Notes: a model not told the origin generated them from the letters alone. 64,000 nt of DNA from Candidatus Zambryskibacteria bacterium RIFCSPLOWO2_01_FULL_39_39 (GCA_001823925.1 MHWB01000011.1:25471-89470); one strand, 5' to 3'; positions 5,061-41,127 are shown, counted from the stretch's first letter. Made by a program: numbers and translations.

Positions 5061-7010
5061 TTATTGCACCACCCTTTCATCTCCCATTTTAAAACCTGGG
5101 TCTCCGGAAAAATCAGTAGTGACTTCTCCAGTCCTTGTTTCTATTTTTAAACCAGTTATCTTATCAATACCAGAAAGAGAGGCTCCACCCAAAAGGCTTG
5201 GGGTTTGCCCGATTTGACTTACACTAGGTAAGAATTCAAGCTGAAAATATATTTCCTTGGCGGGAGAATCGAAACCAGTATTTGGCAAAACAGATCCCAC
5301 ACTCCAAACAACTTCATTGCTCACAGGATTGAATGAAAAAATTTCGCTCGCTGGGCTTTTTATATTAGTCCACTTTACATAAGAAGGCAGGGTGGCTCTA
5401 ACTTCCACATTGCTTACCTGATTAAAAGAATTATTAATACTCCAGACCACAGTATACGTGGTGGGCGCATCAGCCTTTGGTGGTATTGGTCCAGAATTTT
5501 CCAAGTTGCCAGCAGATCTTACTATTTTTGATGAAAGAGTGATATCGGTTGCAAGAACAATTTTTCTTGTCTCAACAGAAGAAACCATCTCCACCGAACC
5601 AGACTCTAAAATCCTTTCACCCCTAGCTTTAATGGTTATTTCTATTTCAGGCCTAACGCCTTTGGCTATATTTGAATACAGAAGGGGTGTCAATCGAAAA
5701 GATAATCTTTCTTCAGAACCCGGCCCCATATCAGAAAGCCCTGGCACCAGACGTTTATCCCACAAAATAGTATCATTTGATGACTGAAAGAATCCATTAT
5801 TTCCCGGGAGAACCCCCGATCGATTAAAAGCTCCGCCCTTAAAAGTAACTTCAACTACTGTATTAAATAATCTAGATGGCAAATTATTTTTAACCGTAAA
5901 TTCGGTGCCAATCTGCTCACCACCTTGAGCGGCAAAATCCCCATCTCCTCCTTCAATAGACACATCTAGCCCAATAAAAGGCTTTTTTACCAAAATTGAT
6001 TCCACTGACTGCGAAAACGGCACGGCTATTTTCCTTTCATCATCTAGACTCCCCGTGCCCACGTTTATCTTAAAAACTTTTTCTTCATTGTCTTGCCCAA
6101 TAATACTTCCTTTTATTGTAATTGTTTTCTTTTCTCCAGAGTTAAGGCTTCCAAATCGCCAAATATTATTGTTATACGAGGCCTTGGGTGTCGCTTCTTT
6201 AAAAACAAAACCAAATGGATATTCAACATTAACCAAAAAATCGCCCACCTTATCTTTAGAGTTTGAGGCTACTTCTACATTAAAAGAGATCTCTTGATTT
6301 GAATTAACTTCTTTGGGATAAGTGGGGGTGATTATGACCGGAGCAGAACTTATAGATATTTCATGTATTTTCTCTTTATAAAAAAGAGCGCTTGAATTTT
6401 CTACTCTATACTCTAAAGATATTTTCAATTGTTTCAACTCCTCTTTTTCTCCAAAGAAGACTACTTTAATATTTTGGTTGAAATCTTCTCCGGATTTTAT
6501 TTTATCCAAAGCAAATCTTTCTTGATCAAGTTCTTTAGTCAAATCGCTTACAGATCTCGTGCCCGCTGGATATTCTAACAGTAAGGAAGCGGAATCAAGA
6601 TCTACATTGTTGTTATTTATAATACTTATATCAAACGACACCTCTTGCCCACCTCCCACCGAAAGCGGTCCTACCACTTTTATATCAACATTTTTTGAGG
6701 AAATAGAGTTCACGCCACCAAAAAACACAAAGATGGCCACACCACAAGCGGCCACAAAAAACAAAGTGGAAAATATGAAAATTTTATTTATGAAGTTGTG
6801 TTTTTTCTGAGCCATTTTTGATACTTTAGCCGCTAACTCGTCAAAACCATTGCTTTTTGCGTTTTGCCAATTTTCTTTTATTCCCTCTGGTTCTTCTATT
6901 CGAGGATTAAATTCTGACCTCTCAGTGTGATCGATATTAGAGATATTTCTAGAATATAATTTTCTTTCAAGTCTTTCTAGCTTTTCTTTTTTTTCATCAT
7001 TGAATTCCAT
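5061..7010 (-). CDS. Hypothetical membrane-anchored protein with a large extracytoplasmic region
   Basis: 649 aa; a single TM near residues 75-100; no recognised domain. Confidence 0.4.
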   Translation of the reverse strand: MEFNDEKKEKLERLERKLYSRNISNIDHTERSEFNPRIEEPEGIKENWQNAKSNGFDELAAKVSKMAQKKHNFINKIFIFSTLFFVAACGVAIFVFFGGVNSISSKNVDIKVVGPLSVGGGQEVSFDISIINNNNVDLDSASLLLEYPAGTRSVSDLTKELDQERFALDKIKSGEDFNQNIKVVFFGEKEELKQLKISLEYRVENSSALFYKEKIHEISISSAPVIITPTYPKEVNSNQEISFNVEVASNSKDKVGDFLVNVEYPFGFVFKEATPKASYNNNIWRFGSLNSGEKKTITIKGSIIGQDNEEKVFKINVGTGSLDDERKIAVPFSQSVESILVKKPFIGLDVSIEGGDGDFAAQGGEQIGTEFTVKNNLPSRLFNTVVEVTFKGGAFNRSGVLPGNNGFFQSSNDTILWDKRLVPGLSDMGPGSEERLSFRLTPLLYSNIAKGVRPEIEITIKARGERILESGSVEMVSSVETRKIVLATDITLSSKIVRSAGNLENSGPIPPKADAPTTYTVVWSINNSFNQVSNVEVRATLPSYVKWTNIKSPASEIFSFNPVSNEVVWSVGSVLPNTGFDSPAKEIYFQLEFLPSVSQIGQTPSLLGGASLSGIDKITGLKIETRTGEVTTDFSGDPGFKMGDERVVQ

Positions 7011-7036
7011 TATCTTTAATTATAACACGAGTAGAT

Positions 7037-7615
7037 TTAAGTCGCCCTGAGAGACTCGTTGATGAGTCCTATTATTTTTGATCTTTGGGGAGCAATCATT
7101 TCCAAATCTTTTATTTCTATTTCTGAAGAAGACATCGGGATCAGTAGCTCTGGGTCGTGGCGCATATAACCCAAGACGTGCAAGATGCGAACCAGAGTTA
7201 AACATTCAGCCAAAGCAATACTTTCTTCTTTCGCGGTTATTAAAAAATCAAAAAAATTTGCAACAATACCAAAAATGGAACCATGAGCTTCTTCTTCGGA
7301 AACAAGTTTCTTTATGAGGCTAAGTATATTTGAAGCAATTCTTAATTTAAGCGGAGAATTCCTAAAGCTTTCATAAAAATTCTGCTCCGCCCTAACACTA
7401 ACAACTTTAAAGCCACCTTTGCCACGCACCAAAGAAAATTCACTGAAAGAAAAATCTTGCGAGCCTCCGCGCAATTTAGAGCGGATATTTCTAGCTCCTT
7501 GCACCCGAGCATTTATTAATCCAAAATTTTCAGTAAATATTTCTATGAGCCTATTGCTGTCCCCTTCAATTTTACTTCCGACGACAATACCCTTGGTGTG
7601 GTGTTTGTGGTACAT
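7037..7615 (-). CDS. RecO-like DNA repair protein
   Basis: N-terminal OB-fold-like GIVVGSKIEGDSNRLIEIFTENFGLINARVQGAR resembles the RecO N-terminal domain. Confidence 0.45.
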   Translation of the reverse strand: MYHKHHTKGIVVGSKIEGDSNRLIEIFTENFGLINARVQGARNIRSKLRGGSQDFSFSEFSLVRGKGGFKVVSVRAEQNFYESFRNSPLKLRIASNILSLIKKLVSEEEAHGSIFGIVANFFDFLITAKEESIALAECLTLVRILHVLGYMRHDPELLIPMSSSEIEIKDLEMIAPQRSKIIGLINESLRAT

Positions 7616-7626
7616 AAAATTAAGTT

Positions 7627-10600
7627 TTATTTAATTTTAATTTTCAATTTATAATTTTCAATTTTCAACTCTTCTCCGTCGTTTTCAGCAAAAATAATTT
7701 CATTTATATTAGTTGGTTTTTTAATTTCCGAAATAACAGAGTTCAAAAATTCTTTACCCACATTGTCCGTCTCCACCAAAAGCTCTATTGCGTCAGCTGG
7801 CATTAAATTTTTATTCTTACGAAGTTCTTGAACAGCTCTTATAAAACTTCTTAGATCACCCTCTTTTTGCAATTCTTTTGTTATTTTTGTGTCCAACTCC
7901 ACTTCTGTTTCTAAATTTTCCTGGAAGATTATTTTTTTAACATTAACTTCATCCTTTATTAATTCCAAATATTCTTCTTTATCTTTCAATTTTAAATCTT
8001 TAATTTTTAATTTACTAAGAGGTTGTCTTACTTTTATATTGGCCGTCATTCTTTTTTCTAACGCTAAAGAAACTGTTTTTCTTACCTCTTGCATCATTTC
8101 CAAAATTTCTGCGAAATGGAGCCCTTCGACTTCGCTCAGGACGGGCCAACTGCAAAGATGGACACTCTCTGGATCATTTGGAAATTTTAATTTCAAATAA
8201 ATATGTTCAGCAAAAAATGGAGTAAGTGGTGCCATATATTTTGCCAATTCTAATAAAACAAAGCGAGTGGTTGAGAGCACATTATTTTTGTCTTTTATGT
8301 CTTCCGATTTAAATCTATCTCTTGAGCGTCTAATATACCAAGTAGAAAAATCTTCAATAAAATTCAGGATGGGACGGGTTGCGCCGTAAATATCACAAAC
8401 ATTAAGTGCTTTGGTTATTTCTTTATGGAGTTCACTTAAGCGAACCAAAATCCATCTGTCCAAAACATGTTCCGACTCTTGATTATTTTCAACAACTTTT
8501 TTGTCAGAATACATTTCATAAAACGAAAGTACATTTTCAAGTTTTAAAATAACTTTTTTTGAAACTTCATCTACCCCTTTTTCAGAAAAATTTAAATCCT
8601 CGGCTTTCATGACCGGAGTTGACATGAGATAATATCTCAAACTATCTGCTCCATATTTATCAACAATAACTGTCGGGTCTTGGTAATTTTTAAGCCTCTT
8701 GCTCATTTTTTTACCATCTTCTGCTAAAACAATGCCGTTGACTACCACATTATTAAAAACTTGTTTTCCAAACAAACTAGTTGCAAAAACATGCTGGTAA
8801 TAAAACCACTTACTAATCTGGTCAAGCCCTTCGGCAATAAAGTCGGCAGGAATACGACTTTCTACTTTTTCTTTATTTTCAAATGGATAATGGTAGGAGG
8901 AAAAAGGCACTGATCCAGAATCAAACCATGTGTCCAAAACATCAGTTACCCTTTTAAAAACTATGCCTTTGTCATTAACCAATTCTACCTCATCTATATA
9001 TGGCCTATGTAAATCAAGTTCGTAATTTTCGTTATGAGGAAGTGGTACAAAATTTAGTTCTCCAAATTCAGCAAACTCTGATTTATGTATTCCTTTTTCT
9101 TTTATTTCAATTGACCTGTTCAAATTTGCCCCCTCCGTCACCATATACATAGCCGCAATCGGACCATCGTGACTCACCAAAAGAATGTTTTTATCAGAAT
9201 ATTTTTTTTCAATATTAAAAAGTAGACCCCCCATTCTCTTATTTAAGTCAAGTAAAGTCTCTCCACCATCAGGTGCTTTTTCAAATCTTTCTCTCATATT
9301 TGCAAACAATTTCCAATATTCATCCCATTTTTTACCTTCAAAATCTGGTCCCTTTTTAAATTCTCCCAGCAAATCATCTACTTTGACATCCTCTTTACTT
9401 AAATCTAAAGCTTGGCGCACAATTTCTGCAGTTTCAAGACATCTTTCAAAAGGAGAAGTAATTATTAAATCAATTTTTTCTTTTTTTATATCTTGGGCAA
9501 CAGTCTGTACTTGCTTTCTACCTTCCTTGGTTAAGGGAAAAATATTTTGGGGATCTGAATTTATAATATCCGAAATATTTTGCTCGGCTTCTCCATGTCT
9601 CATTACAAAATATTTATTGCCAGATTTTTTGGTATATTTTTGTAGCTCTTCAACTGACCCGATCACTAACCTTTCCTCTGTTTTTTCATTTTCCCAAACA
9701 GGAATAGTGTTTGCCCAAAAACGCTGTCTGCTAATAGACCAGTCACGAGCATTTTCTAACCAACTATGCCAACGACCTTCTTTGATGTGTTTTGGTTGCC
9801 AATTTATATTTTCTGCGTACTCAAGAAGATCTTTTTTTATTTTTGAAACTGAAACAAACCAGGAACTGGTGGCATAATTTAAAAGCGGAGTTTCGCACCT
9901 CCAACAGTGTGGGTATGAGTGCTCATATTTTTCCTTAGAGAAAAGGAGATTTTTTTGAGCTAATATTTTCAAAACCTCCACATCAGTTTTTTGTGGATCC
10001 TCTATTGGTTTTACAGAAAGCCCAGCCAAATCGAGAACCTCCGATCTTATAATGCCATCCATACCAACATGTTGAACAAACGGTAATTTTTCTTTTTTAC
10101 CAAGTTCCATATCATCTTCCCCAAAAGCAGGGGCAATATGAACCACCCCCGTACCACTTTCAGTGGTCACGAACGAAGTGGCATAAATCTTCCAACCATT
10201 TTTTCTATTTTCTAATGTCTTACTTTTTGAATAATCATCAAAAATTGGTTTGTAAGATTTGCCAACTAAATCTTTGCCTTTAAACTCTTCAACAATCTCA
10301 AACTTATCCTCTTTAAAAATTTCTTTGAGCTTTTCTTTAATGAGAATAAATCTAGTGAGATTTTCCATGGTCTCATCTTTCTTTTCTATTTTTACATAAA
10401 TAAAATCTGGGTTTACTGCCAAGGCAACATTGCCAGGCAGAGTCCATGGGGTAGTTGTCCAAGCCAAAATAAAAGTATTCGGTTCATCCACTAATTCAAA
10501 TTTAGCTGTTACCGCGATATCTTTAATATCTTTATAGCCTTCTGCTACTTCTGCTTGAGCTAGTGTAGTCTCACAACGCGGACAAATATACATTGATCGA

Positions 10601-11130
10601 TAATCTTTATAAATTAAACCTTTATCAAATAATTTTTTAAAAGCCCACCACTCTGACTCCATATAAGAAGCGTCCATCGTTCGATAAGGACTATCCATAT
10701 TTACCCACCGTCCAAAGCGTGGAATAAACTTATTCCAAACATCGACATAAGTAAAAATTTTATCTCGACAAAGATTATTAAATTTGCCAATTCCTATTTC
10801 TTCAATTTCTTTTTTACTTTTGATACCTAATTCCTTTTCAACAATATTTTCAATTGGTAGACCGTGTGTATCCCAGCCCCACCGCCTCTCAACGAAGCGC
10901 CCCCGCATTGTCTGATAGCGCGGAATCACATCTTTCATAACACTTGCTACCAAGTGGCCATAGTGAGGTGTTCCGGTAGCAAATGGAGGTCCATCATGAA
11001 AAACAAAAGGTTTATTATTTTTTGTTTGCTCTAGAGATTTTTCAAAAATTTTGTTATCTTCCCAGAATTTCAGTATTTCTTCTTCTCTTTCGGCTATTTT
11101 TGACTTTTGGTTTCCCTCTATCATACTCAA
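7627..11130 (-). CDS. ileS: Isoleucyl-tRNA synthetase carrying an internal histidine-phosphatase (PGM-like) domain insertion
   Basis: HYGH and KMSKRL motifs, WCISRQR-like WSISRQRFW. Residues ~505-690 (nt ~9061-9618) are a complete RHG histidine-phosphatase domain (FVMRHGEAEQN ... LVSHDGPI). Confidence 0.9.
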   Translation of the reverse strand: MSMIEGNQKSKIAEREEEILKFWEDNKIFEKSLEQTKNNKPFVFHDGPPFATGTPHYGHLVASVMKDVIPRYQTMRGRFVERRWGWDTHGLPIENIVEKELGIKSKKEIEEIGIGKFNNLCRDKIFTYVDVWNKFIPRFGRWVNMDSPYRTMDASYMESEWWAFKKLFDKGLIYKDYRSMYICPRCETTLAQAEVAEGYKDIKDIAVTAKFELVDEPNTFILAWTTTPWTLPGNVALAVNPDFIYVKIEKKDETMENLTRFILIKEKLKEIFKEDKFEIVEEFKGKDLVGKSYKPIFDDYSKSKTLENRKNGWKIYATSFVTTESGTGVVHIAPAFGEDDMELGKKEKLPFVQHVGMDGIIRSEVLDLAGLSVKPIEDPQKTDVEVLKILAQKNLLFSKEKYEHSYPHCWRCETPLLNYATSSWFVSVSKIKKDLLEYAENINWQPKHIKEGRWHSWLENARDWSISRQRFWANTIPVWENEKTEERLVIGSVEELQKYTKKSGNKYFVMRHGEAEQNISDIINSDPQNIFPLTKEGRKQVQTVAQDIKKEKIDLIITSPFERCLETAEIVRQALDLSKEDVKVDDLLGEFKKGPDFEGKKWDEYWKLFANMRERFEKAPDGGETLLDLNKRMGGLLFNIEKKYSDKNILLVSHDGPIAAMYMVTEGANLNRSIEIKEKGIHKSEFAEFGELNFVPLPHNENYELDLHRPYIDEVELVNDKGIVFKRVTDVLDTWFDSGSVPFSSYHYPFENKEKVESRIPADFIAEGLDQISKWFYYQHVFATSLFGKQVFNNVVVNGIVLAEDGKKMSKRLKNYQDPTVIVDKYGADSLRYYLMSTPVMKAEDLNFSEKGVDEVSKKVILKLENVLSFYEMYSDKKVVENNQESEHVLDRWILVRLSELHKEITKALNVCDIYGATRPILNFIEDFSTWYIRRSRDRFKSEDIKDKNNVLSTTRFVLLELAKYMAPLTPFFAEHIYLKLKFPNDPESVHLCSWPVLSEVEGLHFAEILEMMQEVRKTVSLALEKRMTANIKVRQPLSKLKIKDLKLKDKEEYLELIKDEVNVKKIIFQENLETEVELDTKITKELQKEGDLRSFIRAVQELRKNKNLMPADAIELLVETDNVGKEFLNSVISEIKKPTNINEIIFAENDGEELKIENYKLKIKIK

Positions 11131-11143
11131 AATATAGCATTTT

Positions 11144-12166
11144 CTAATCCTTTTTCAAAAGGTTTTTTATTCTTTCATTTATTTGAGTTTGTAACACAAA
11201 TTGATTTCCATGTTTCAATAAACCGCTATATGACATAAGTGAGCTTACATTTTCATTTTCGTTCAAAGCTTTTACAACTCTCCTCTTTGTCGCAGTCCTC
11301 AAAACTCTGTGGGTTGGGAAATGCCCCCAGCCCAGGAAATCAACACCAGAAGATAAAGTCTTTATGAATACCTTGTTGGGATGAAGCAAAAGTTTTAGAT
11401 TTTCTTCCAAGAATTCACTAATTTTATAAGTAAGTTCCAAAAGGTAGTATTTGTCTGTACTTAGTATCACAAAATCATCTGCATATCTTATATAATATTT
11501 TACTTTCATTTGATGCTTCATCCAACTATCAAACTCATTCATGTATATGTTTACTAAAAGTTGAGATGTTAAATTTCCTAAAGGTAAGCCAACACTTTCT
11601 TTTCTAGAATCAAAACTTTTTATTACTCTCGCGAGCAGCCAAATTATCTCTTTGTCCTCTATGTGTTTGTTTAAAATATTTAAGAGAATGGTTTGATTTA
11701 TAGAAGCAAAGAACTTACGAATATCACACTTTAGAACCCAGCAAGTTTTTGTATTGTTTTTTGATACCTTTCTGCCAAAATCTCTAAATCTATTTATGGC
11801 TCTGTGAGTCCCTTTGTCTAGCCTGCAAGAATATGAATCATGTATAAAAAGTTTATCAAAGTATGGATACAGTATTTTATAGATTGCATGGTGCAAAAGC
11901 CTGTCCCTTACTATTGCCTTATGTATATTGCGAGGTTTGGGGTCTGAAATATTGAAGGCTTTGTAGCCAGCGTGGGTGTAGGTTTTTGTTTGGAGAGAAT
12001 TGTATAAAGAAATTATATTATCAAACAAATTTAACTGAAATTCCTGGGCATCTATTTTGTTTTTCTTTCCATTTAGAAACTCTTCCCAAGCTAGGAGCAG
12101 ATTTTCTATAGAAATGATATCTTTATAGTGAATAGAAGATTTTTTCATTTTATAATTAGAACACAA
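11144..12166 (-). CDS. Reverse transcriptase of a diversity-generating retroelement
   Basis: 340 aa; YADDFVIL motif 5; motif 4 is GLPLGNLTSQLLVNIYM (SQ in place of SP, the DGR RT hallmark). Confidence 0.85.
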   Translation of the reverse strand: MCSNYKMKKSSIHYKDIISIENLLLAWEEFLNGKKNKIDAQEFQLNLFDNIISLYNSLQTKTYTHAGYKAFNISDPKPRNIHKAIVRDRLLHHAIYKILYPYFDKLFIHDSYSCRLDKGTHRAINRFRDFGRKVSKNNTKTCWVLKCDIRKFFASINQTILLNILNKHIEDKEIIWLLARVIKSFDSRKESVGLPLGNLTSQLLVNIYMNEFDSWMKHQMKVKYYIRYADDFVILSTDKYYLLELTYKISEFLEENLKLLLHPNKVFIKTLSSGVDFLGWGHFPTHRVLRTATKRRVVKALNENENVSSLMSYSGLLKHGNQFVLQTQINERIKNLLKKD

Positions 12167-12182
12167 AAATTATTCCTATGAA

Positions 12183-12193
12183 CCCCCCCCCCC
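12183..12193. repeat. Homopolymeric C11 tract in the 46-bp divergent region between the RT and avd starts
   Basis: aacccccccccccgc read directly; the surrounding genome is AT-rich. Confidence 0.9.
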
Positions 12194-12212
12194 GCAATTA
12201 CAAGCAAAAAAT

Positions 12213-12572
12213 TTGGTGCCTGTGGTAATAAAATTGAAGGATAGTTATAAACTGTGGCAAGTTCTTTTAGCAATTCTACCCAAGACTTTGCGATATTCTA
12301 TGGGAATAAAAATAGATTCTCTTTTTGTTGAAGTGATAGAATACACATCCATGGCCAGCTTTTTAGAAAAAAGTGAGAAGTTGCCATATTTGAAAGTAGC
12401 TATAAGAAAAATAGATACTATAAAAATACTTCTTATGATTGTCTGGGAAAATAGAGGAATTGATGACAAAAAGTACATAACTATTTCTGAATCACTAAAT
12501 GAAGTGGGTAAAATGCTTGGTGGATGGAGCGGACAGCTTATAAAATCAGCCTCCGTTAAAACTTCGGCCTGA
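12213..12572 (+). CDS. avd: Four-helix-bundle protein of the 23S rRNA-IVS family; putative DGR accessory variability determinant (Avd)
   Basis: 119 aa; C-terminal ISESLNEVGKMLGGW matches the four-helix-bundle/Avd family; adjacent to RT and TR1. Confidence 0.55.
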   Translation: MVPVVIKLKDSYKLWQVLLAILPKTLRYSMGIKIDSLFVEVIEYTSMASFLEKSEKLPYLKVAIRKIDTIKILLMIVWENRGIDDKKYITISESLNEVGKMLGGWSGQLIKSASVKTSA

Positions 12573-12583
12573 CAAAGCAAAAC

Positions 12584-12604
12584 TCTCCCAAGAAATAGGG
12601 AGAG
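12584..12604. other. GC hairpin (ctctccc-aagaaata-gggagag) directly 3' of TR1 in the minus-strand RNA sense
   Basis: 7-bp perfect stem, followed on the minus strand by a U-rich run. Confidence 0.5.
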
Positions 12605-12616
12605 AAATGAAGAGAG

Positions 12617-12717
12617 TTGCGACGCCCCGCAAACCAGATATTGCCATTCCAGTTGCTGTCGTTACTGTTCACATTGACCTTGCGCTCATCACCGTTCCGG
12701 TTGAAGTAGACGTAACT
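12617..12717 (-). repeat. DGR template repeat TR1
   Basis: 101 bp, homologous to 13072-13172. All ~20 mismatches have T on the + strand here (A in the minus-strand sense). In-frame translation is Asn-rich. Confidence 0.85.
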
Positions 12718-12983
12718 CTGTACAAAAAACCCTCTATGCCACCACCCCTTGAAATTTTTTTAAAATAACTCGGAGTTGAATTTTATTTCGCATCATAATG
12801 CGATGGTATTCTGTACCAAGTATCTTCATTTTTTATTGAAGTTTCTACATACACCACCCTACCAAAAACCGTGATCCCCGATATTCTCGATGTATGAATA
12901 CTGGATTCGGTGGCAAGCATCCATAAACACTTGCTGATATTCACCTACTACCATATTTATATTAGCAAAATTTTGATAAATAG

Positions 12984-13015
12984 AAATCCCCATCCGCCGA
13001 AACGGGTGGGGATTT
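12984..13015. other. 13-bp-stem GC hairpin ~55 bp downstream of VR1 (minus sense); candidate DGR target-recognition hairpin/cruciform
   Basis: aaatccccatccg-ccgaaa-cgggtggggattt; one G-U pair. Confidence 0.6.
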
Positions 13016-13067
13016 GAAGGACAAAGTCCAAAGGATCCGAAAGACCCAAATGGACAAGTCCGAAGAT

Positions 13068-13682
13068 CTACTTGCGACGCCCCGCAAACCAGAGAGAGCC
13101 AAGCCAGAAGCTGACGAGACTGTCCACATGGACCTTGCGCCCATCACCGCGCCGGTAGAAGTAGACGTAACTGTTCTTTGCCCACTGCATCCCGTTGGGA
13201 TGTTTATCGGCAAAAGCCTGGTCATCTGCATTCACCTGCATTTGGGCTGCGTAGTCCGGGACAAGCCCACGTTCCTCAAACACTCGTGAAATGTCGGCGA
13301 CAGGGGTGTCTTTCTCGAGCGGGAAGAAGAGTAGGTCACCTTCTTCCGGGCCGTCCATGGGCATAGTCGCGAGGACTGTCTCGTCGACGTACCATGGTAC
13401 ACGATTGCAAGCAGAAAGTAATTGAGCCGGAGTTTTCGTCCGATCCACCTTGAAGTGGCGGATGATCACTTTAGCACGATGCTCGACGCGAGTTTTCAAC
13501 GACTCGATAAACTCTGCAATGAGTTCCTCCATCTCGTCATCTGAAACGCCTTGCACTATGTCTTTTGGGAAATTGGTACCGGCTTTCGGAAACTTGGCGA
13601 CAAATCGATCACCAATCTGTCGTGCCTGTTCCTGGGTCATTGTTTCTGTGGTTGCAATGGTTTTTTGTTCCATCGGTTGCAC
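13068..13682 (-). CDS. DGR variable target protein 1; VR at the extreme C-terminus; GC-rich gene; no signal peptide
   Basis: 204 aa; the C-terminal 34 codons are VR1; GC clearly higher than the flanks. Confidence 0.8.
   Translation of the reverse strand: MQPMEQKTIATTETMTQEQARQIGDRFVAKFPKAGTNFPKDIVQGVSDDEMEELIAEFIESLKTRVEHRAKVIIRHFKVDRTKTPAQLLSACNRVPWYVDETVLATMPMDGPEEGDLLFFPLEKDTPVADISRVFEERGLVPDYAAQMQVNADDQAFADKHPNGMQWAKNSYVYFYRRGDGRKVHVDSLVSFWLGSLWFAGRRK
13072..13172 (-). repeat. DGR variable repeat VR1
   Basis: Pairs with TR1; differs only at TR adenine positions; sits at the 3' end of the target ORF. The IMH-like end tttgcggggcgtcgcaa is shared with TR1. Confidence 0.85.
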
Positions 13683-13816: not shown

Positions 13817-13848
13817 TACACTGTCTTTACGGTCGTAAGAAGAGTGTA
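13817..13848. repeat. 32-bp near-palindromic element tacactgtctttacggtcgtaagaagagtgta (copy 1). Sits ~135 bp upstream (minus sense) of DGR target gene 1.
   Basis: Identical to 14438-14469. Confidence 0.8.
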
Positions 13849-13850
13849 GT

Positions 13851-14426
13851 TTATTTTTTAGGAAGTTTAAAATATTTACGGAGCCAATCGTCATTTTCAA
13901 TTAATTCAACTGTCATATAAATAACATCGTCCCCTATTTCTAAATAAGTTTTTAAAAGATTGATCGCCCCTTCACATGGGTATGGATAGACCCAAACACT
14001 ATTTTGTAATCTTACAAATCCAAATTTTAAAAGCATATATCTCAGATCATCTCGTGAAAATCTTAAATTTTCTTTTATATCAAAGATAACTACTCTATAT
14101 TTTCCATCCCATTTTTTGGGTTTTTGTTTTGCCAAACCTTCAAATTCAAATTTAAGAAGTGATTTCTTACCCTCTGGAGTTAACTTGGCATATTTTTCTC
14201 CACTGGCTTTAGTAATCGTCTCAATCAGACCCCTTTTATAAAGTTTCTTTATTGCTGTATCAATATAATATTTTTGTCTATCTTCTCTTTTTTTATCAAG
14301 ATTAAGAAGTCTCAAAGCTTGCAGAGCATTGGGAGCAATCAAAGCAAAACTCATAAGAGCCGAGAGTCCAATGACCGCAAGTATTATATTTCTTACTGGT
14401 ATCCTTTCACCATAATCGTCTTTCAT
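13851..14426 (-). CDS. PaaX-like regulator: N-terminal TM, wHTH, C-terminal PaaX_C/Cas2-like fold
   Basis: WDGKYRVVIFDIKENLRFSRDDLRYMLLKFGFVRLQNSVWVYP resembles the PaaX family C-terminal motif. Confidence 0.4.
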   Translation of the reverse strand: MKDDYGERIPVRNIILAVIGLSALMSFALIAPNALQALRLLNLDKKREDRQKYYIDTAIKKLYKRGLIETITKASGEKYAKLTPEGKKSLLKFEFEGLAKQKPKKWDGKYRVVIFDIKENLRFSRDDLRYMLLKFGFVRLQNSVWVYPYPCEGAINLLKTYLEIGDDVIYMTVELIENDDWLRKYFKLPKK

Positions 14427-14437
14427 AATTTACATTA

Positions 14438-14469
14438 TACACTGTCTTTACGGTCGTAAGAAGAGTGTA
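14438..14469. repeat. 32-bp near-palindromic element (copy 2), 12 bp upstream of the PaaX-like gene start; includes a TGTATAAT -10-like motif on the minus strand
   Basis: Identical to 13817-13848. Confidence 0.8.
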
Positions 14470-14505: not shown

Positions 14506-15321
14506 TTAAGAAAGTACTTTTTTTGCTTCTTCAAATTCTTTCGGCAGAGGAGATTCTACTGTTATGTGGGTACCAGAAGGAAGTTGTAACTTTATAGATA
14601 ATGCATGTAAAGCAAGCCTATCAAACCCTAATATTTTTTCTTCTCCATCTTTCGTATTTCGCCTGCCCGAATGACTCGGTCGGGCGGGTATTTCGTATTT
14701 CTGTTTTCGCCCGTATAGTTTATCCATAAGTACCGGATGACTTATTGATTTCAAGTGTACTCTGATTTGATGTGTCCTCCCCGTCTTAGGTCTAACTTCA
14801 AGATACGCAAAATATTCTCCCTCAATTTCTTTTTGAAATAAAACTTTATACTCTGTAACTGCCTCTCGGAGCTCCCCCTTTGCGCCATGCTCTGCAGACC
14901 ATTTTCGGAAATCTGAAGCGCTCCGACCAATTGGAGCATCTATCCTCCCCTCTATTTTGCCTGTCCTGAGCAAAGTCGAAGGATCGGCTCCAAATTTTCC
15001 CCAAACAACTGCATTATAAATTTTTTCTACTTTTCTATTTTGAAACTGCTCTTTCAAAAACTGATGAGCTTCTTTGGTTTTTGCCACAAGTATTACCCCG
15101 CTTGTATCTCTATCCAACCTATGCACAATACCAGGCCTCTTTATAACCTCTCCATTTTGGAGAGTTTGAGGCTCCCCCACTTCTTTCAAATACGGATAAT
15201 CCTCGTTTAGCCGATCTACTAAAGTAGGGTTCTTGCTCCTCCCATCAGAGTGCACCAAAAGCCCACTTGGCTTGTCTAAAGCTAATATATATTCATCTTC
15301 GTATAATACTTTTATTTCCAT
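14506..15321 (-). CDS. RluA-family pseudouridine synthase (RluD/RluC-like)
   Basis: HRLDRDTSGVILVAKT catalytic motif; RTHQIRVHL. Confidence 0.85.
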   Translation of the reverse strand: MEIKVLYEDEYILALDKPSGLLVHSDGRSKNPTLVDRLNEDYPYLKEVGEPQTLQNGEVIKRPGIVHRLDRDTSGVILVAKTKEAHQFLKEQFQNRKVEKIYNAVVWGKFGADPSTLLRTGKIEGRIDAPIGRSASDFRKWSAEHGAKGELREAVTEYKVLFQKEIEGEYFAYLEVRPKTGRTHQIRVHLKSISHPVLMDKLYGRKQKYEIPARPSHSGRRNTKDGEEKILGFDRLALHALSIKLQLPSGTHITVESPLPKEFEEAKKVLS

Positions 15322-39891: not shown

Positions 39892-41127
39892 TTAATTTGA
39901 TTTTATAATTACAAAAGTTTTCTTGCCTATTTTTATTTTTCTTTCTCCCCCCCCCACCACTTCATTGAAATCACTTATTTTTTTATCCGGCAAACTTGTT
40001 TGATCCGATACCGCGCCAGCCTCTATCAAGCGACGAAATTCTGATTTTGATTCTATAGTTTTATCGTTGACCAAAATGTCTATCATTTTTTCTGCTTTCG
40101 ATGCATTTATCACCCGAGCATCTTCCGGAAATTCGCCCTTACCAAAGGTACTCTCAAAATTTTCCCCTGCTCTTTCAGCTTCTTTTTCTCCGTGGTACAT
40201 CTTTACTATTTCTTTGGCTAATTTCATTTTTATATCTTTGGGATTAAGGCCACCAGCAAGCTTTTTTGACATCTCTTTTATATCATCCAGAGAAACATCG
40301 GTAATCATCTCAAAACCACTAATTATAAGGTCATCGTTCCAACTCATTACTTTACCAAACATATCTTCGGGGGTTTGATCTAAGGAAACCATATTACCTT
40401 CGGTCTTACCCATTTTGCTACCACTAGAATCAATTAAAAGTTTGGTGGTCAAAACAAATTTTTCTTTGTTTTTTAAAGTCTTCATCAAATCTCTTCCAAC
40501 AAGCATATTAAAGGTTTGATCGTTACCGCCCACCTCACCATCCACATCCATAGCCACACTGTCATAACCCTGCATAAGCGGGTACATTAATTCATGAATG
40601 TAAACAGATTTTTCATCTTGTTCCCTGCGACGGAACATTTCTCTTTTCATCATTTGCTCCACCGTTGCTTGTGAGGCCAACTCTAAAACATCAAAAAGGG
40701 TCATCTTGCCAAACCACTCTGAATTGTATTTAATTGTGGCAGGATTAGTCCCACCAAAATCAATAAACTTTGAGGCCTGCTTCTTGTATTCCTTGAGATT
40801 ATTTAAAATCTCATTATGGGTCAGTTTTTTGCGAACTGCCGTTTTATCCGTAGGATCGCCAATCATAGCAGTAAAATCGCCCATAAGTAGTATAATTTGA
40901 TGACCAAGTTTTTGGAATTCTCCTAATTTTTTAAGTGGAATAACGTGGCCCAAGTGTAGGGTTTCGCCGGTTGGATCGATACCTAAATACAAAGAGAGTC
41001 TTTCTCCTTTTATTAATCTCGCTTTTAGAAAATTAAAATTGGGAAATATATTTTCTACCCCCCTCTTTAAAAGTTCATCTACTTTTTCTTCGTCAACTAT
41101 TACTTTTGATTTAGTAAGCCCAAACAT
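39892..41127 (-). CDS. tyrS: Tyrosyl-tRNA synthetase
   Basis: HIGH motif (LHLGH); KMGKTEG (KMSKS); C-terminal S4-like domain. Confidence 0.9.
   Translation of the reverse strand: MFGLTKSKVIVDEEKVDELLKRGVENIFPNFNFLKARLIKGERLSLYLGIDPTGETLHLGHVIPLKKLGEFQKLGHQIILLMGDFTAMIGDPTDKTAVRKKLTHNEILNNLKEYKKQASKFIDFGGTNPATIKYNSEWFGKMTLFDVLELASQATVEQMMKREMFRRREQDEKSVYIHELMYPLMQGYDSVAMDVDGEVGGNDQTFNMLVGRDLMKTLKNKEKFVLTTKLLIDSSGSKMGKTEGNMVSLDQTPEDMFGKVMSWNDDLIISGFEMITDVSLDDIKEMSKKLAGGLNPKDIKMKLAKEIVKMYHGEKEAERAGENFESTFGKGEFPEDARVINASKAEKMIDILVNDKTIESKSEFRRLIEAGAVSDQTSLPDKKISDFNEVVGGGERKIKIGKKTFVIIKSN

Follow-up and report, generated by a model that had tools for sequence, protein, structure and literature searches.

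What kind of genetic element occupies positions 11144 to 13682 of a 64,000-nucleotide stretch of DNA from Candidatus Zambryskibacteria bacterium RIFCSPLOWO2_01_FULL_39_39 (GCA_001823925.1, MHWB01000011.1:25471-89470; the whole stretch is hereafter "the window"), is it still active, and what might govern that activity? The host lineage, Candidatus Zambryskibacteria, belongs to the Parcubacteria of the Rifle aquifer, and the region carries a reverse transcriptase (RT) gene, a gene for an accessory variability determinant (Avd), and two copies of a 101-nt repeat, one of which lies in the 3' end of an open reading frame (ORF). A preliminary description had read this arrangement as a diversity-generating retroelement (DGR) bearing the signature of mutagenic homing, and that reading is upheld here: a DGR-type RT, Avd, a non-coding template repeat (TR), a 3' variable repeat (VR), differences at adenines only, and a GC-rich boundary are all present. 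We put the probability that the locus is a chromosomal DGR of architecture B3, the arrangement typical of the Candidate Phyla Radiation (CPR), at about 0.95. The cassette runs in the order target gene with its VR, structured RNA leader, TR, stem-loop, inverted avd gene, simple repeat tract, and RT gene.

The repeat pair and the genes of the cassette

The repeat pair and the three genes are laid out as follows:

12617-12717, minus strand: template repeat (TR), non-coding, rich in Asn codons (9 AAY codons), with 29 adenines
13072-13172, minus strand: variable repeat (VR), the last 34 codons of the target, with 16 A-templated substitutions and 11 amino-acid changes
13068-13682, minus strand: target (variable-protein) gene, 204 aa (201 aa from the ATG), without a known domain, GC content 52.7%
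12213-12572, plus strand: avd (accessory variability determinant), on the strand opposite RT, TR, and target, with a TTG start at 12213
11144-12148, minus strand: DGR reverse transcriptase, 334 aa from the ATG (a TTG at 12166 is an alternative start), with a GNLTSQ motif 4 and a YADD box

A repeat search of the whole window recovered the direct repeat where the preliminary description had placed it, over 101 nt at 84% identity, although the "about 20" mismatches reported there come to 16 when counted. Every one of the 16 falls at a plus-strand T of the TR, which is an A in the minus-strand coding sense, opposite A (7), G (6), or C (3) on the plus strand of the VR. The adenine specificity that had been claimed is thereby borne out: T occupies 29 of the 101 plus-strand positions of the TR, and the hypergeometric probability of finding 16 of 16 mismatches there is 4.2e-11. 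These substitutions change 11 codons and as many amino acids, eight of the changed codons being AAY (Asn) codons in the TR, and they record past diversification of the element. The VR does constitute the last 34 codons of ORF 13068-13682, TR/VR homology stops at the target stop codon, and the GC-rich 3' end said to be shared by the two copies is found in both as TTTGCGGGGCGTCGCAA. The last 22 nt of TR and VR, GCGGGGCGTCGC included, are identical, and divergence begins exactly beyond them; the translations of the two copies quoted in the preliminary description were likewise exact. The TR sits in an intergenic stretch that is continuous with conserved RNA structure on either side, and its theoretical repertoire amounts to ~1.8e16 DNA variants and 8.7e15 protein variants. 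A search allowing any change at template adenines found no further TR/VR-like copies in the 64-kb window, nor is there a second RT, Avd, or target paralogue in it, and the numeral in the earlier label "TR1/VR1" has no counterpart pair anywhere in the window.

The RT assigned to ORF 11144-12166 matches Pfam RVT_1 (3.8e-25) and contains LPLGNLTSQLLVNIY and YIRYADDFV. Read with its flanking residue, motif 4 is LGNLTSQ, which fits the DGR pattern [I/L/V]GxxxSQ, and the catalytic YADD fits YxDD; GNLTSQ is invariant among 12 related RTs. The best match among solved structures is 8ub7_A, a 328-aa RT (145 bits, E 3.4e-41), whereas group II intron and retron-type RTs of solved structure score at most 83 bits. 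We take 8ub7_A to be the Bordetella phage RT (bRT) because of its 328 residues and because Asp215 and Asp216 in its YMDD are the bRT active-site residues named by Handa et al. By its motifs and its best match in the structure database, the window RT appears to belong to the DGR clade.

Avd is the accessory protein of one class of DGRs, others having HRDC, MSL, or CH1 in its stead. The Avd-like gene reported between RT and TR, on the opposite strand, likewise finds its family: the ORF matches NCBIfam DivGenRetAVD at 2.5e-14 (residues 3-105 against profile positions 2-102 of 104) and Pfam bAvd at 1.9e-7. A minus-strand ORF overlapping it, 12245-12580, has no credible family (no Pfam match and a single NCBIfam match with E 0.076). 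In the minus-strand sense, TR (12717-12617), avd (12213-12572, plus strand), and RT (12148-11144) follow one another as TR-(avd)-RT, which is architecture B3 with avd inverted between the other two. The preliminary description had called this inversion unusual, but it is the normal state in the host group, because B3 makes up 90% of CPR DGRs according to Wu et al. (2018; PMC5758913).

The same module recurs well beyond this genome. Searching 185,579 species genomes for members of the target family yielded 36 loci, of which almost all belong to Patescibacteria. At 18 of these, the homologue of the target adjoins avd and/or RT, and all 18 have RT on the target strand and avd on the opposite one, as in the window. 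A TR/VR pair of their own is present in 17 related loci, where 266 of 271 mismatches fall at TR adenines, in segments whose boundaries were picked by a score that penalises non-A mismatches; these segments span 90-104 nt, with 9-20 A-mismatches and 0-1 others.

One relative also displays diversification in progress. The sister element L106 (metagenome contig Ga0051980_10038825, 398-467), whose RT is 58% identical to that of the window, contains 17 undetermined bases (N) in its VR, and 17 of 17 are at positions of TR adenines. L109, which is 99.3% identical to L106, has defined bases at those same positions. Undetermined calls restricted to template adenines are the footprint expected of a hypervariable population, and the sister element is actively diversifying. 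In a separate locus, L022, a scaffold gap of 10 N abuts the VR.

The target itself is a less familiar protein. Nothing credible was found for it in Pfam, NCBIfam, or PDB sequences, and Foldseek against the PDB returned no match; there is a weak fold similarity of C-type-lectin-like kind, with Mtd and TvpA among the matches. The C-terminal domain that bears the VR is probably C-type-lectin-like, and the N-terminus is hydrophilic as judged by eye. In the protein alignment of the target family, variation clusters at the C-terminal positions that correspond to Asn codons in the templates.

Several further observations concern the target family. The GC content of the target (52.7%) stands well apart from that of RT and avd (32-34%) and of the window (37%), and a high target GC recurs in 32 of 36 relatives (mean 52.6% vs 42.5%), whether the VR is excluded or not; horizontal spread and adenine avoidance are two possibilities. 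Among the protein records, P0002 (233 aa) is a frameshifted form of the window target, and in P0007 (245 aa, JGI) the VR runs directly into sequence downstream of a TR and antisense to avd, which looks like a VR/TR assembly collapse or a deletion in a related element. One Moranbacteria contig holds two of the loci, L027 and L036: in this genome, a second target homologue lies ~200 kb from the DGR, without an RT or Avd homologue within the 5 kb fetched on either side, and is a candidate remote target.

Conserved RNA structure around the template repeat

Comparison of the related loci brought out four further features between the avd gene and the target:

12718-12956, minus strand: structured RNA leader of ~239 nt directly 5' of the TR, with covariation and conservation
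12583-12604, minus strand: stem-loop 3' of the TR, 12 nt past it, with a 7-bp stem followed by a U-run; a terminator-like match
12959-12967, minus strand: extended -10 promoter-like element, TGcTAATAT (TGnTAnAAT in relatives), directly upstream of the leader
12984-13015, minus strand: GC-rich hairpin with a T-rich tail, beginning 53 nt past the target stop codon; terminator-like

The leader is highly conserved across 16 loci. Its consensus (alignment A6) comprises 55 pairs, 46 of which have compensatory changes on both sides. The share of paired cells is 95.4%; column shuffles give 76.5%, with 0 of 500 as high as the real alignment, and sliding the partners out of register by one, two, or three columns lowers it to 34-48%. 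An nhmmer profile recovers the leader in 67 related loci, on the RT strand every time. It is presumably the 5' part of the DGR RNA, and a mechanically called ORF inside it (12783-12944) is probably not a gene. Single-sequence minimum-free-energy folding of the TR region had done no better than shuffled sequences (z = +1.09), and the structures are seen only by comparative analysis. In the related locus L087, the leader domain occurs twice, at 339-563 and 2707-2924, and this locus may hold two TR modules.

Weinberg et al. (2017; PMC5737381) proposed that certain structured RNA motifs beside RT genes, the RT motifs, are parts of retrons or DGRs. Two of these resemble the leader at sub-threshold level in Rfam: RT-7 (RF03028) scores 22.8-26 bits where the gathering score is 116.8, and RT-16 (RF03019) 25.8 bits where it is 50. 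The weak RT-7 matches recur at corresponding positions of the window and two relatives, L093 and L031; at gathering score, neither motif is matched in any of 14 relatives.

Upstream of the leader, a 16-locus alignment (A4) has no variation at the T, A, and T of TAnnnT, and the -10-like element is a candidate promoter for the TR RNA. Further upstream still, the hairpin at 12984-13015 is the first GC-rich hairpin 3' of the VR, within the 350 nt that separate the target stop codon from the TR. In the same alignment, relatives have an equivalent hairpin followed by a T-run downstream of the target, and in the window this looks like the terminator of the target gene.

On the other side of the TR, the stem-loop is preceded by a conserved AACUCUYUUCAUUUCUC, and it is kept in 16 relatives with compensatory changes at 7 of 9 consensus pairs; in many of these it sits within the 3' end of antisense avd. 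Handa et al. surveyed 278 Avd-type DGRs from several phyla, including CPR, and predicted in 207 of them a stem-loop closely following the TR that would bind Avd; by analogy the stem-loop at 12583-12604 is a probable Avd-binding element of the DGR RNA. They also located priming and RT-binding elements in the 140-nt spacer 3' of the Bordetella phage TR, and the functional RNA of the window element would probably extend in a like manner into antisense avd.

A working model can be drawn from these parts, with the assembly of a ribonucleoprotein, self-priming, the promoter, and the roles of stem-loop and leader all borrowed from the Bordetella phage system. A minus-strand non-coding RNA would start at the extended -10 element, near 12960, and would consist of the ~239-nt structured 5' domain, the 101-nt TR, the stem-loop 12 nt further on, and a 3' extension antisense into avd. 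RT and Avd (encoded at 11144-12148 and 12213-12572) would assemble on this RNA, and the RT would then copy the TR into cDNA, misincorporating opposite template adenines. The cDNA would replace the VR at 13072-13172, with the GC-rich 3' end common to both repeats as the boundary, and each such replacement could recode up to 18 codons in the C-terminal domain of the 204-aa target.

A variable repeat tract and the present state of the element

A further component of the cassette lies between the start codons of the divergent avd and RT genes:

12183-12193, no strand assigned: simple-sequence repeat, C11 on the plus strand and G11 in the RT sense, between the avd and RT starts

The tract is real, conserved, and variable in length. 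It lies ~32 nt upstream of the RT ATG and 19 nt upstream of the avd TTG (12213), at the conserved Avd N-terminus, a distance that ranges from 4 to 19 nt across relatives. Across the cassette, seven contigs depart from the window in nothing but the length of this tract, for which 9, 10, and 11 are recorded. A tract of C9 brings an ATG further upstream, at 12178, into frame, for an Avd of 130 aa; among recorded versions of the Avd ORF, the C9 type is found on 14 contigs and the C10 and C11 types on 20. The sister elements L106 and L109 differ in the same way, having G10 and G9, respectively. All 15 junctions from genomic relatives carry G8-G12 or, in one case, (GT)9. Among metagenomic relatives with enough upstream sequence, 60 of 68 have a repeat, of which 53 are G6-G14 (mode 9-11) and 7 are (GT)n or (GA)n; no trinucleotide repeat occurs at any of the 68, every type found being one that shifts the frame. 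The RTs of tract-bearing relatives are 56-68% identical to that of the window. Such runs are otherwise rare, with only 19 G/C runs of at least 7 nt in 305 kb of related loci, 14 of them at the avd/RT junction. The window has three runs of this size, one of which is a C9 (plus strand) at 39947-39955, in the 3' end of the tyrosyl-tRNA synthetase gene (39892-41127, minus strand).

It is tempting to suggest that the tract tunes or switches the expression of Avd and/or RT; this is the leading hypothesis, although we hold it at well under even odds. In its strongest form, the tract would be a contingency switch, in which slipped-strand changes of length set how strongly Avd, RT, or both are expressed, so that hypermutation of the target is turned on and off stochastically. 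The confinement of polymorphism to the tract among cassette-identical contigs, the differing lengths in both the window lineage and the sister pair, the conservation of frame-shifting repeat types only, and the concentration of G/C runs at this one junction all speak for a switch of this kind. Other evidence tells against it. If the switch worked by moving the upstream avd ATG in and out of frame, an in-frame excess might be looked for, yet the observed length opens that ATG to avd at 19 of 66 junctions, where each of the other two phases would do so at 29 of 66, and in L106, whose tract leaves the ATG out of frame, hypervariability is plain to see. A frameshift switch of the RT fares no better, the phases being 35, 35, and 32, without preference. 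A promoter-spacer role was a poor fit by inspection: measured from the conserved Leu-Pro codons, distance plus tract length comes to 15-22 nt, dinucleotide tracts extend to 31 nt, and the 31-nt (GA)15 exceeds any promoter spacer. Length differences between assemblies at a homopolymer are also possible sequencing or assembly artefacts, and the fact that every repeat type is G-rich on the RT strand could mean a sequence-specific role instead of mutability. The contingency switch is a tentative proposal. A further candidate, pairing of the tract with the pyrimidine-rich 3' flank of the TR, was rejected, the (GA)n and (GT)n loci being without a matching change in that flank.

No open-access paper was found that joins the terms DGR, homopolymer, and avd, and the text of Wu et al. 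(2018; PMC5758913) mentions neither the junction tract nor the 239-nt leader. A broader claim can be framed, namely that this is a lineage in which the ~30-60 nt between the avd and RT starts hold a hypermutable (G)6-14, (GT)n, or (GA)n that phase-varies hypermutation through the expression of Avd and/or RT, and in which an undescribed ~239-nt RNA is fused 5' to the TR. Taken in its entirety, we regard this claim as doubtful.

Whether the element in the window is itself still at work is a separate matter, on which its own population bears. The exact RT protein occurs on many contigs of Candidatus Zambryskibacteria / Parcubacteria group bacterium GW2011_GWA1_38_7, and the exact target protein on 25 contigs. 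The preliminary description had looked to population-level variability of the VR; for the window element this is absent at the level of assembled consensus, in the seven contigs and in all protein records. More specifically, no VR variant was found at that level in the seven strain contigs, in the 90% cluster, or in the homologue list, and all other recorded versions of the target carry an identical VR. Assembled consensus sequences hide minority variants, and the absence of consensus variation bears on current activity and not on the identity of the element. One of the contigs, L005, is 100% identical to the window in the cassette and its right flank apart from the repeat tract, and is only 74-97% identical in the isoleucyl-tRNA synthetase region (window 5262-10415); either recombination in this strain or a chimeric assembly accounts for the contrast, whose boundary falls near the RT 3' end.

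Several points weigh against the DGR model. Both Avd matches score under the curated cut-offs (53.5 vs 80 bits for DivGenRetAVD and 32 vs 40 bits for bAvd). The 3' ends of TR and VR are identical, and any distinction between an initiation-of-mutagenic-homing sequence (IMH) and its template-side counterpart (IMH*) must sit in the flanks. The stem-loop and U-run past the TR could end the RNA ahead of any priming and RT-binding region of the Bordetella type. The seven independent contigs with a window-identical cassette show 0 VR differences. Finally, there is no target variant among ~15 billion proteins, the next match being 63% identical.

One alternative is that the DGR is decayed or domesticated, having once diversified its target and now homing no longer, with the VR a fixed allele. 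Identity of the VR and of the whole cassette in contigs from different samples, the uniform VR in every recorded target, and an upstream avd ATG that is out of frame in the window and in ~20 of 34 contigs would all be expected of such a relic. Yet neither the RT nor the avd ORF is interrupted, every catalytic motif is in place, and TR, leader, and stem-loop fit the conserved family consensus, the TR retaining its 9 AAY codons. The masking of minority variants in consensus assemblies applies here as well, the sister element is visibly variable, and all samples may stem from one clonal aquifer population. On balance, decay seems unlikely, if a serious contender. Because the VR is fixed in all sampled assemblies, the window element would be currently quiet, rarely active, or selected for one variant. 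The remaining alternative, that the repeat is a chance or duplication remnant beside an unrelated RT (of a group II intron, a retron, or a defence system), is refuted: the top NCBIfam RT model is admittedly a group II intron RT/maturase (151 bits, under its cut-off of 300), with no DGR-specific RT model scoring among the NCBIfam matches, but the adenine-confined mismatch pattern (P 4e-11), an RT that scores much better with the bRT-like chain than with RTs of the group II or retron type, the presence of Avd, the recurrence of the module with A-specific TR/VR pairs in 17 relatives, and the finding of neither a group II intron nor a retron RNA family at the locus by Rfam leave it next to no probability.

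Flanking features and comparison with known systems

The neighbourhood of the cassette has peculiarities of its own. A perfect 32-nt direct repeat with palindromic ends, TACACTGTCTTTACGGTCGTAAGAAGAGTGTA, is present at 13817-13848 and 14438-14469, and its copies flank a gene for a 191-aa protein (13851-14426, minus strand) with a PaaX central / Cas2-like domain. On the other side, the isoleucyl-tRNA synthetase gene (7627-11130, minus strand) encodes 1165-1167 aa with a histidine-phosphatase domain (His_Phos_1) inserted between segments of the catalytic domain, as read from precomputed Pfam matches on the identical gene in another contig, L001. Positions 14601-14693 of the window (93 nt, within an RluD-type pseudouridine synthase gene) are missing from L001, where the product has 240 aa as against 271; it has 228 or 269 aa in other contigs. 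The region is identical apart from this difference in length, a polymorphism due to an indel or to assembly.

The closest known systems are the B3 DGRs of CPR and DPANN organisms, as set out by Wu et al. (2018; PMC5758913). The window element shares with them its gene order and orientation, with avd inverted between TR and RT, as well as a groundwater Parcubacteria host, a small target without an annotated domain, and A-specific TR/VR differences, and it is no different in kind. Both the kind of element and its B3 architecture have already been described, in a type of groundwater dataset already surveyed for DGRs. With DGRs abundant in CPR groundwater genomes and an inverted avd the published norm, the locus adds little as a DGR as such. 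DGRs of CPR and DPANN organisms were reportedly also treated by Paul et al. in 2017, a work that Wu et al. cite. The value of the locus is rather that of a clean reference example, with its parts mapped to the base and ~1e16 possible C-termini.

The mechanistic prototype is the DGR of Bordetella phage BPP-1 (mtd, avd, TR, brt). The two have in common a homologous RT with the SQ motif, an Avd, a non-coding AAY-rich TR, a VR that forms the C-terminus of the target, a GC-rich 3' end common to TR and VR, and a stem-loop just 3' of the TR, comparable to the Avd-binding Sp 3-33 of BPP-1. Unlike in BPP-1, avd in the window is inverted between TR and RT, so that the equivalent of the spacer is antisense to avd; the element is chromosomal, without phage context, and has a repeat tract between avd and RT; and the target is a 204-aa protein with a hydrophilic N-terminus and only weak C-type-lectin similarity. 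Moreover, the window has a conserved structured domain of ~239 nt 5' of the TR, whereas BPP-1 needs only 20 nt upstream. If the leader is indeed fused to the TR, more would be required of the RNA than the Bordetella phage model calls for. The Rfam motifs RT-7 and RT-16 resemble the leader as structured RNAs beside RT genes and differ in that the leader scores far under their gathering thresholds; together with its weak RT-7 links, the leader may give the orphan RT-7 motif class a function and extend the RNA-protein model beyond Bordetella phage.

To our knowledge, the regulation of DGR activity is largely an open subject, and a conserved tract that varies in length within one population offers a testable hypothesis of on/off or dosage control. 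Here the apt comparison is with the contingency loci of Neisseria, Haemophilus, and Campylobacter, where poly-G/C tracts of 8-14 bases or dinucleotide repeats likewise occupy a gene's 5' end or the gap within a divergent pair, differ in length from one near-identical genome to the next, and change in type from one orthologous locus to another. In contrast to those loci, the in-frame state is not enriched at the tract of the window lineage and the host is an uncultivated CPR bacterium. The function under such control would also differ, being here a mutagenic retroelement and not a surface structure.

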